Virus record (IMG/VR): IMGVR_UViG_2718218139_000002
Length of the DNA stretch: 33,748 bases
Reading direction: 5' to 3' (one strand)
Source of the DNA: a virus
Taxonomy: Duplodnaviria; Heunggongvirae; Uroviricota; Caudoviricetes
A model generated the notes under the pieces. That model was not told the DNA's origin and searched no databases. It saw only the letters and a program-made list of their open reading frames with translations. Both the position numbers and the translations under genes were made by a program. This document shows, piece by piece, positions 10,262 to 10,609 of the stretch; the stretch's first letter is position 1, and every line of letters starts with the position of its first letter.

Positions 10262-10609
10262 TAGATTTTTCCAGTATTTGTAGATATTGCACTGAACACC
10301 GAATACGTAGCAGAGGGTGTCTACACGATAACGTGCTATGAGCTACCATGTTGTCGAAAAATTGTTTAGTGAGTATGACATCAGGAATGTGGTGGTCTGT
10401 TTTAATATTTCTATTTCTATTTCTATTTCTATTTCTATTTGTTGTGATTTTTTCTTTAGTTCATGTATTTCGATTTGTTTCTGAATTATCGGGGGTAGTG
10501 TCTTCCCTTTTCCCTGAGGCTTATCATGCAGTTATTTTCGCCATCTTGGTATTGTGGAAATACCGACATCCATAGCTTTGGTGAGCTCTGTTCAGGTGGC
10601 CAAATTCAG
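10262..10609 (-). mobile_element. Truncated IS3-family element (IS911-related remnant: terminal repeat plus orfA region)
   Basis: 10586-10609 is identical to the IS911 end at 18557-18580 (CTCTGTTCAGGTGGCCAAATTCAG); 10440-10585 aligns with IS911 orfA DNA (18280-18443) at roughly 75 percent identity; no transposase ORF remains. Confidence 0.55.
10407..10440. repeat. Hexanucleotide microsatellite (ATTTCT), about 5.7 copies
   Basis: Perfect tandem ATTTCT units read directly, inside the IS remnant. Confidence 0.9.

Follow-up and report, generated by a model that had tools for sequence, protein, structure and literature searches.

IS911, a member of the IS3 family of insertion sequences, is bounded by 36-bp inverted repeats to which its OrfAB protein binds, and its OrfA protein contains a documented leucine zipper (PMC2909936). 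The two ends carry different promoter signals, the right inverted repeat (IRR) holding an outward-facing -35 element and the left inverted repeat (IRL) only a -10 element, which points inward (PMC9330008). A hexanucleotide repeat of Escherichia coli O157:H7 has been described under the names VNTR-9, O157-9, Vhec4 and TR1, all of which denote one locus (PMC3321953, PMC3768571); one study counted 15 alleles of 6-23 repeats at it (index of diversity 0.90), together with 31.7% null alleles (PMC3321953). No literature tying VNTR-9 to an insertion sequence was found in a full-text search on IS911, VNTR and O157. These two subjects meet in the DNA considered here, a prophage stretch of 33,748 nt (hereafter the window), where a short relic adjoining an HNH endonuclease gene is very probably the neutral fossil of an IS911-group insertion sequence, dead and internally deleted but still two-ended, and carries a slippage-prone repeat.

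Compared with IS911, the relic keeps homologous versions of the IRL, orfA, the orfA/orfB overlap, the start of orfB and the IRR in their original order and orientation, the inner 24 nt of the IRL being identical and the leucine-zipper region of OrfA still recognisable. It differs from IS911 in having suffered two deletions (~117 and 753 nt), in lacking a DDE domain, in the stop codon within orfA, in its changed tips and in the absence of a target duplication. Like a MITE, the relic is small (391 bp), possesses both terminal inverted repeats and has no transposase; unlike a MITE, it is single-copy, without a target duplication and decayed at its tips, and shows no sign of having spread as a miniature element. 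In common with the contingency loci of Haemophilus and Neisseria, it has a short, perfect tandem repeat that slips often and occurs in many alleles; its array, however, is associated with no switchable gene and lies outside any conserved ORF and any -35/-10 spacer.

Identity and anatomy of the IS911-group relic

The reference for the comparison is an intact copy elsewhere in the same window (17344-18592, minus strand; 1249 bp), which carries orfA and orfB, matches the NCBIfam model 'IS3 family transposase' and Pfam rve, and is flanked on both sides by AAT as a 3-bp target duplication. The first-pass annotation of this DNA had placed that copy in the coat gene, and this is where it sits, since the P22-type coat gene is split by it, with positions 1-140 of Pfam PF11651 on one side and positions 142-423 on the other. 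The name it had been given needs correction: in a gap-free alignment the copy shares 91.3% identity with an element of Shigella dysenteriae annotated as IS911, and it is therefore labelled IS911-like here rather than IS911 itself. A second IS3-family element in the window (~14.2-15.5 kb) was considered as kin of the relic and rejected, there being no similarity between the two.

When the minus strand of 10240-10640 was compared with the window by BLASTN, the intact copy was matched at 18133-18435 with 72% identity over 318 nt (E 2e-43), the part of the relic aligned at this level being 10266-10590, and a separate block was identical at 24 of 24 positions (10586-10609 against 18557-18580). A repeat finder tied 10266-10620 to 18133-18591 by five collinear blocks of 75-86% identity, and tblastn recovered OrfA (E 6e-16) as well as the OrfB N-terminus (E 3e-5). 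Identity to the IS911-like OrfA is 57-58% in amino acids, against 72-74% in nucleotides, and the relic, which has a G+C content of 36%, is equally far from the IS911 annotated in S. dysenteriae and from the intact copy of the window. By BLASTN, tblastn and HMMER, whose best functional matches are to IS911 OrfA (57%), it belongs by homology to the IS911 group of the IS3 family. The earlier proposal of a degenerate IS911 relative without a transposase, marked by an internal deletion and a hexamer expansion, is thus upheld by BLASTN, by alignment and by Tandem Repeats Finder, the similarity extending over ~320 nt instead of being limited to a 24-bp end.

Aligned with the intact copy, the relic reads as an element of 391 bp that occupies ~10231-10621 on the minus strand, with both inverted repeats recognisable as descendants of those of the insertion sequence, though not intact. 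Its left boundary had previously been set at 10262, with a terminal repeat noted at one end; 10262, however, is where the match to the OrfB N-terminus ends, and the IRR lies beyond it, so that the relic is two-ended, with two internal deletions between its inverted repeats. The length sum closes on this reading (1249 - 117 - 753 - 1 + 12 + 1 = 391).

At the 5' end of the element, IS positions 13-36 survive at 10586-10609 and IS positions 45-50 as a CTCACC scar at 10580-10585 (both minus strand), the scar standing between the two parts of the 5' deletion. Positions 37-44 and 51-159 are missing, which leaves orfA without its ribosome-binding site, its start codon and some 29 codons at its beginning; the first-pass annotation had put this internal deletion at roughly 110 bp, and the alignment gives ~117 nt. 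Positions 160-460 are retained at 10266-10579 with ~72% identity. At its edge lies the 11-mer TACTGGAAAAA (10266-10276, minus strand), of which the intact element has two copies, one at position 450 and one at 1203; the relic has lost the 753 nt that separate them, and with these almost the whole of orfB, its DDE domain included. Beyond TACTGGAAAAA, the relic keeps register and passes into the final 35 nt at the right end of the element.

These 35 nt, the decayed IRR and 3' end (10231-10265, minus strand; IS positions ~1215-1249), read TCTAAAATCGAGGCAAGTTTTTAGTGATAACTATA in the relic and TCTAAAGCGGTGGCCAGTTTTTGTTGACCACTACA in the intact copy. They agree at 25 of 35 positions, gapless and in register with the upstream alignment (binomial p 5e-7), and the local score of the stretch was attained by 6 of 5000 shuffles and by none of 458 neighbouring AT-rich windows. 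In the Escherichia albertii orthologue L013 the agreement rises to 27/35 and TCAACAAAAACT is kept, as in IS911. The extreme tip has changed from ...ACTACA to ...ACTATA, ending in TA instead of CA. On the IRL side, the outermost stretch (10610-10621, minus strand) is of uncertain origin: it agrees with TGTAGTGGCACA at 6 of 12 positions (p=0.12) and overlaps the point, ~10617, at which phage homology restarts, and retention of the IRL tip is not claimed. Target-site duplication was sought around the relic and none was found, the flanking triplets differing on any reading of the ends (CTC vs GTT, minus strand). In place of ~36-bp terminal inverted repeats ending in 5'-TG...CA-3', the relic thus offers an inner IRL at 24/24, an IRR at 25/35 and changed tips.

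The 24-nt block of the IRL had been described as the terminal 24 bp of the element, identical to the intact copy. The identity stands, and it extends to the S. dysenteriae IS911, but the position does not, the block being the inner part of the IRL. E. albertii-type versions match it at 23 of 24 positions. Under a uniform identity of 72%, a run of at least 24 nt has a probability of 0.033, and the excess over uniform decay is most economically explained by past constraint, because the block lies within the 36-bp inverted repeat bound by OrfAB; gene conversion or present-day binding of an IS911 protein could also account for it.

This conservation bears on whether the relic might be a MITE-like mini-IS, still bound or moved by a resident IS911-type transposase and perhaps acting as a decoy site or a rearrangement hotspot. 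Two inverted repeats within 391 bp, one of them with an inner part identical to that of IS911, would offer OrfAB something to bind, and an intact IS911-like copy resides 7 kb away in the same prophage. The IRR, however, retains only 25 of 35 positions, and the terminal CA-3' on which cleavage in the IS3 family depends has become TA, while the IRL tip matches at half of its 12 positions. Nor does the distribution speak of movement, the relic having been found at 538 places in 523 E. coli genomes (median one per genome, maximum two), always at the same site, next to the HNH gene or to IS30, and without the target duplication of a mobile element. Such a mini-IS is accordingly very unlikely.

The coding remains point the same way. 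A remnant of orfA corresponding to OrfA residues ~30-100 occupies 10343-10579 (minus strand), without a start codon or a ribosome-binding site and with an in-frame stop at 10532-10534, its frame reading KAMDVGISTIPRWRK*LHDK...QQIEIEIEIEIEILKQTTTFLMSYSLNNFSTTW* (asterisks, stops). It is followed by 26 N-terminal codons of orfB (10265-10342, minus strand; LIARYRVDTLCYVFGVQCNIYKYWKN), which end in YWKN. An orfA/orfB pair with a -1 frameshift and a DDE transposase is therefore absent, given the stop, the lost start, the 26 orfB codons and the deleted rve/DDE region, and the relic, as read from the sequence, encodes no transposase; most likely it is immobile.

Differences from the IS911-like copy are distributed over the three codon positions as 22/25/32, and base changes lean from GC to AT (47 vs 20). 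Amino-acid identity (58%) is lower than nucleotide identity (74%), and dN/dS between the two is 0.32 rather than 1, from which it follows that part of the divergence is older than inactivation and that the ancestor was a distinct relative of IS911. The divergence would fit two phases, that of a working insertion sequence distinct from IS911 followed by long neutral decay. E. coli copies of the relic are near-identical outside the repeat, so that their conservation is uninformative about selection. Taken together, a single IS911-group element in minus-strand orientation has very probably lost ~117 nt from the beginning of orfA, as well as 753 nt by deletion between two copies of its own 11-nt direct repeat, and the remainder has drifted towards A+T and gained stop codons, the terminal bases being lost at both tips.

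Searches for the progenitor returned nothing closer. A distant DNA search among 72,556 plasmids gave nothing nearer than IS911-type copies at ~72%, a word-indexed protein search a single match, namely the translation of the relic itself, and HMMER over 1.84 billion representatives no functional match better than IS911 OrfA at 57%; an exact 33-mer scan of GTDB representative genomes gave nothing. Apart from one chance match, a search with the junction 21-mer found only a solitary 3' fragment in the E. albertii type strain (L016, 4987-5129), derived from a different IS911 relative; when followed into plasmids, this fragment led only to further fragments and to no intact member. The relic and this decayed E. 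albertii relative have the 3'-end motif TCTAAAATCGTG in common, where IS911 has CTCTAAAGCGGTG, a likeness that hints at a separate lineage of IS911 relatives.

The hexanucleotide array and typing locus VNTR-9

Within the orfA remnant lies a hexanucleotide array, (TATTTC)5.8, to which Tandem Repeats Finder assigns a perfect period of 6 (10406-10440; (AAATAG)n on the minus strand). Judged by its sequence and flanks, it is the published MLVA locus VNTR-9 of E. coli O157:H7, the AAATAG repeat, the published forward primer sites and copy-number polymorphism all being found here. The TR1 forward primer, ACTGCATGATAAGCCTCAGG (PMC2246123), matches exactly at 10513-10532, and the PulseNet-type VNTR-9 forward primer (PMC3321953) exactly at 10624-10650, both on the minus strand, the latter site covering the ribosome-binding site and start codon of the HNH gene, outside the relic. 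Across complete genomes, the segment corresponding to 10262-10621 is 360-420 bp long, its length nearly always changing in 6-bp steps, and the loci that were read contain 5, 11, 5, 14, 9, 6, 6 and 9 units (range 5-14); this allele series shows the change in array length to be ongoing.

The O157:H7 locus resembles that of the window in the 6-bp repeat, the right flank and the neighbouring HNH gene, which in strain Sakai belongs to the lambda-like prophage Sp17, but it is interrupted. In this prophage and others, an IS30 with a 2-bp GT duplication has inserted at the equivalent of window 10392/10393, 13 bp left of the array, and the relic has since come apart into two separate halves, whereas the arrangement in the window is uninterrupted and ancestral. 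Both published reverse primers fall inside the IS30 fragment (matched in the O157:H7 loci L003 and L007); as there is no IS30 at the window locus, a null allele, with no PCR product, is expected here.

The beginnings of the array can still be made out in the intact relatives. IS911-type orfA DNA at this site reads ATTGAAATGGAGAATGAAATA, which encodes IEMENEI and has an imperfect 6-nt period, the site falling within the leucine-zipper region of OrfA. In the relic, the same site reads (ATAGAA)n, encodes IEIEIEIEIEI and is 12 nt (two units) longer than in IS911, while one E. albertii-type copy has kept an interrupting GAAATG unit, as in IS911. On the simplest account, a few point changes in the leucine-zipper codons would have turned this cryptic 6-nt period into a perfect AAATAG array that still grows and shrinks by replication slippage (slipped-strand mispairing).

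A hexamer repeat leaves any frame open, and a plus-strand ORF across the array could in principle code for a small hydrophobic peptide whose length is set by the repeat number. There are two candidates, the ORF at 10348-10575 (75 aa), the (FL)n tract of which resembles a transmembrane segment even though no Shine-Dalgarno sequence can be read upstream of 10348, and an (IS)n frame annotated by PGAP as encoding a hypothetical protein, in one long allele the 60-aa WP_072178291.1. In the genomes listed, that call is made only in alleles of at least 396 bp and never in shorter ones, as a threshold on ORF length would give, and indels of 1 and 3 nt between the E. coli and E. albertii versions shift the frame of ORFs across the array and move both of their ends; no Pfam match was obtained. 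The hypothetical protein is an ORF-length artefact, and a peptide function is the least probable of the readings considered here.

Prophage setting and the search for function

The genes around the relic run in the order ninB, Dam-type methylase, ninE, a ninF stump of 16 codons, a gene for a 590-aa protein, the relic, HNH, ninG, a phosphatase gene and Q. The ninF 5' stump (7810-7858, plus strand), delimited by alignment with lambda and with strain E21845, forms the left edge of a cargo block, ninF homology stopping at 7858/7859. The 590-aa cargo gene (8317-10089, minus strand; phrog_9230, function unknown) faces away from the IRR end of the relic, and the HNH gene (10635-11201, plus strand) adjoins the opposite end, its ribosome-binding site and first 10 codons being those of ninG. 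The ninF/ninG junction of lambda matches window 10618-10663, and in lambda the two flanks of the block lie 202 bp apart; strain E21845/O/A has ninF, HNH and ninG in succession without the relic and matches the window at 99% from 10618 on.

As these alignments are read, a block of ~2.76 kb, comprising the 590-aa gene and the relic, has replaced the interior of ninF, and the IRL side of the relic is its exact right junction. The first-pass annotation had already taken the relic to mark the boundary of a cargo insertion, which is where the resumption of ordinary ninF/ninG homology at ~10617-10618 puts it. A tract of low G+C at ~7850-11250 takes in the HNH gene too; the latter is a separate, earlier insertion, because it occurs without the cargo block. 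Since the IRL side coincides exactly with a block junction, we infer that the insertion sequence probably took part in bringing the block in. At the left edge of the cargo (~7859) a second end was looked for, and neither a sequence resembling an inverted repeat nor a transposase remnant was found anywhere in 7700-10230.

At least 244 complete genomes of E. coli contain the cargo block, as do the Stx1 phages SH2026Stx1 and AU6Stx1. Prophages of E. albertii carry a version of it, ~88% identical over the intergenic region and the relic and, in L015, ~94% over the whole block from cargo gene to HNH, and a 71%-identical homologue of the cargo gene occurs next to nleF in an E. albertii chromosome, without the relic. 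The family of the cargo gene has members in E. coli, E. albertii, Salmonella and Providencia. The 590-aa protein has no match in Pfam, PADLOC, NCBIfam or PDB sequences and matches only families of unknown function in PHROGs; its AlphaFold model has a mean pLDDT of 43.

An outward promoter directed at the HNH and ninG genes had also been suggested for the relic, and this suggestion fares worse. A consensus scan found no promoter-like site on either strand of 10100-10640, and 7 sites over 7800-10800 as against the 11.9 expected from shuffles, the scan being a crude consensus test that a weak or activator-dependent promoter could escape. The polarity is moreover wrong, since the end adjoining the HNH gene is the IRL and the outward -35 of IS911 is in the IRR, which here faces the 590-aa cargo gene; an IS-borne outward or hybrid promoter at the HNH end is thus supported neither by the scan nor by the polarity.

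A broader form of the idea holds that the relic is regulatory, either as a promoter or through the length of the array, which would alter the spacing of an upstream element and so tune or switch HNH/ninG or the cargo gene as a contingency locus would. The array is indeed hypervariable and lies between two divergently oriented genes, yet it is ~190 nt from the candidate cargo promoter described below and ~195 nt from the HNH start, outside any promoter spacer, and a phase-variable locus has its repeat within a conserved ORF or a -35/-10 spacer. Towards the cargo gene, the equivalent of the IRR -35 reads TTGATA in E. albertii, but the hexamer has decayed to GTGATA in the window, and no -10 can be read 16-18 nt downstream of it. 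The nin genes, for their part, are ordinarily transcribed from pR by antitermination. Even with the empty scan and an HNH-facing end that in IS911 has an inward -10 only, a candidate cargo promoter located 12 nt beyond the IRR tip, in DNA unchanged in E. albertii, speaks for regulation; on balance, a regulatory role for the relic is unlikely.

That candidate promoter was recognised by eye on the minus strand at ~10219-10188, as TTGACG, a spacing of 18 nt and TGtAATAAC, and the block in which it lies is 100% conserved with E. albertii. A particular version of array-based control would make the repeat a tuning knob, each unit adding a half-helical-turn step that changes the DNA geometry between the decayed ends of the insertion sequence and the promoter of the cargo gene (or of HNH/ninG); we regard this as a long shot.

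At the level of RNA, no Rfam family matched within the relic, and its predicted fold is not unusual, with z-scores of +0.96 and +0.47 that are no better than those of shuffles. The relic is most likely neutral spacer DNA between two divergent genes, with no function today.

Implications for the nin region and for O157 typing

To a specialist, a decayed insertion sequence in a lambda-like prophage will come as no surprise, and VNTR-9 itself is a known marker in routine typing use, so that the practical value of the relic is explanatory. The present analysis contributes its full anatomy, the derivation of the repeat from leucine-zipper codons, for null alleles a likely explanation and, for the cargo block, its exact junctions. 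With these junctions, a moron block in the nin region is now precisely delimited, in a manner consistent with entry assisted by an insertion sequence. Should the array act as a tuning knob after all, lysogens would differ heritably and reversibly in the expression of a prophage moron, and the leucine-zipper codons of a defunct transposase gene would have given rise to a contingency locus. For typing, where the reverse primers depend on an O157-specific IS30 fragment, many null alleles recorded at VNTR-9 probably stem from the arrangement without it and would then reflect the ancestral layout rather than loss of the repeat. The origin of the locus is explained as well, in that a repeat used for years, and worldwide, to trace outbreaks of E. 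coli O157 sits inside a fossil IS911-like element.

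Annotation of the repeat and the IS30 insertion in O157:H7

In the RefSeq/PGAP annotation of the genomes listed, a 'hypothetical protein' spans the hexamer repeat of the IS911-like relic only at loci of at least 396 bp (for example at 4239-4421 of the comparison locus L001), while shorter alleles carry none, and because the annotation thus varies with repeat number, this protein is an artefact. The relic of O157:H7 has received an IS30 insertion 13 bp left of the repeat (window equivalent 10392-10393), accompanied by a 2-bp GT duplication, the sites lying at 2880-2935 in L007 (Sakai Sp17), in L003, and at 4120-4140 in L004. 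The two halves of the O157:H7 relic are now apart, one adjoining the HNH gene and the other the 590-aa gene together with a J-protein fragment. The published reverse primers of VNTR-9 and TR1, both names for this repeat, fall within the O157:H7 IS30 fragment.

The cargo gene and the apparent HNH cassette

For the 590-aa protein encoded beside the relic (window 8317-10089, minus strand), searches of Pfam, PADLOC, NCBIfam, and PDB returned no match, and its PHROG matches were confined to families of unknown function. The N-terminal region contains repeated S-T-L-T-L-N-D-L-L-D-like motifs and the C-terminal part is helical and partly hydrophobic. The AlphaFold model (pLDDT 43) proved too poor for use. 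Homologues occur in E. albertii, where one adjoins the effector gene nleF, as well as in Salmonella and Providencia. Compared with L013, the E. albertii orthologue of the relic region, the sequence around the start of the gene (10080-10185, comprising its 5' untranslated and upstream region) shows several indels and is far more diverged than the adjacent 10186-10250, which is 100% conserved between E. coli and E. albertii. This conserved block holds the tip of the right inverted repeat and possibly a promoter.

On the other side of the relic, the ribosome-binding site and first 10 codons of the HNH gene are those of ninG (ATGGCTAAACCAGCGCGAAGACGATGTAA..., window 10618-10693). Positions 10653-10693 hold a tandem duplication of 20 nt. 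In 11116-11201 ninG begins anew, overlapping the 3' end of the HNH gene, which looks like a cassette inserted at the very start of ninG. The strain E21845/O/A has the order ninF-HNH-ninG and lacks the cargo block.

The prophage and other relatives of IS911

Rfam matches at 28179-28245 and 32669-32740 (minus strand) identify a sar antisense RNA, as in the immI region of P22, and a tRNA gene. Combined with the coat and tailspike head-binding domains, both of P22 type, they mark the window as a P22-like/lambdoid hybrid prophage. A second IS3-family element, unrelated to the relic (about 14211-15475; orfA 100 aa, orfB 272 aa), splits the lysis region between an endolysin-like ORF and Rz, and its ends (TGAGGTAGCCTGAGTTTAACGGACAC...) probably resemble those of IS600. 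The interval from Rz to the coat gene (15905-16908) holds a single ORF of 297 aa without a Pfam match, possibly the scaffold gene. A P22-like phage should also carry terminase and portal genes, which appear to be absent here; as there are two IS insertions besides, the prophage looks defective.

Other diverged relatives of IS911 have left solo 3'-end fragments on the E. albertii chromosome as well as on plasmids of E. albertii and E. coli (L016 4987-5129, from E. albertii NBRC 107761; L018; L019), and these fragments share 75-79% identity with the IS copy of the window. Such fragments suggest several extinct or unsampled lineages within this IS911 group.
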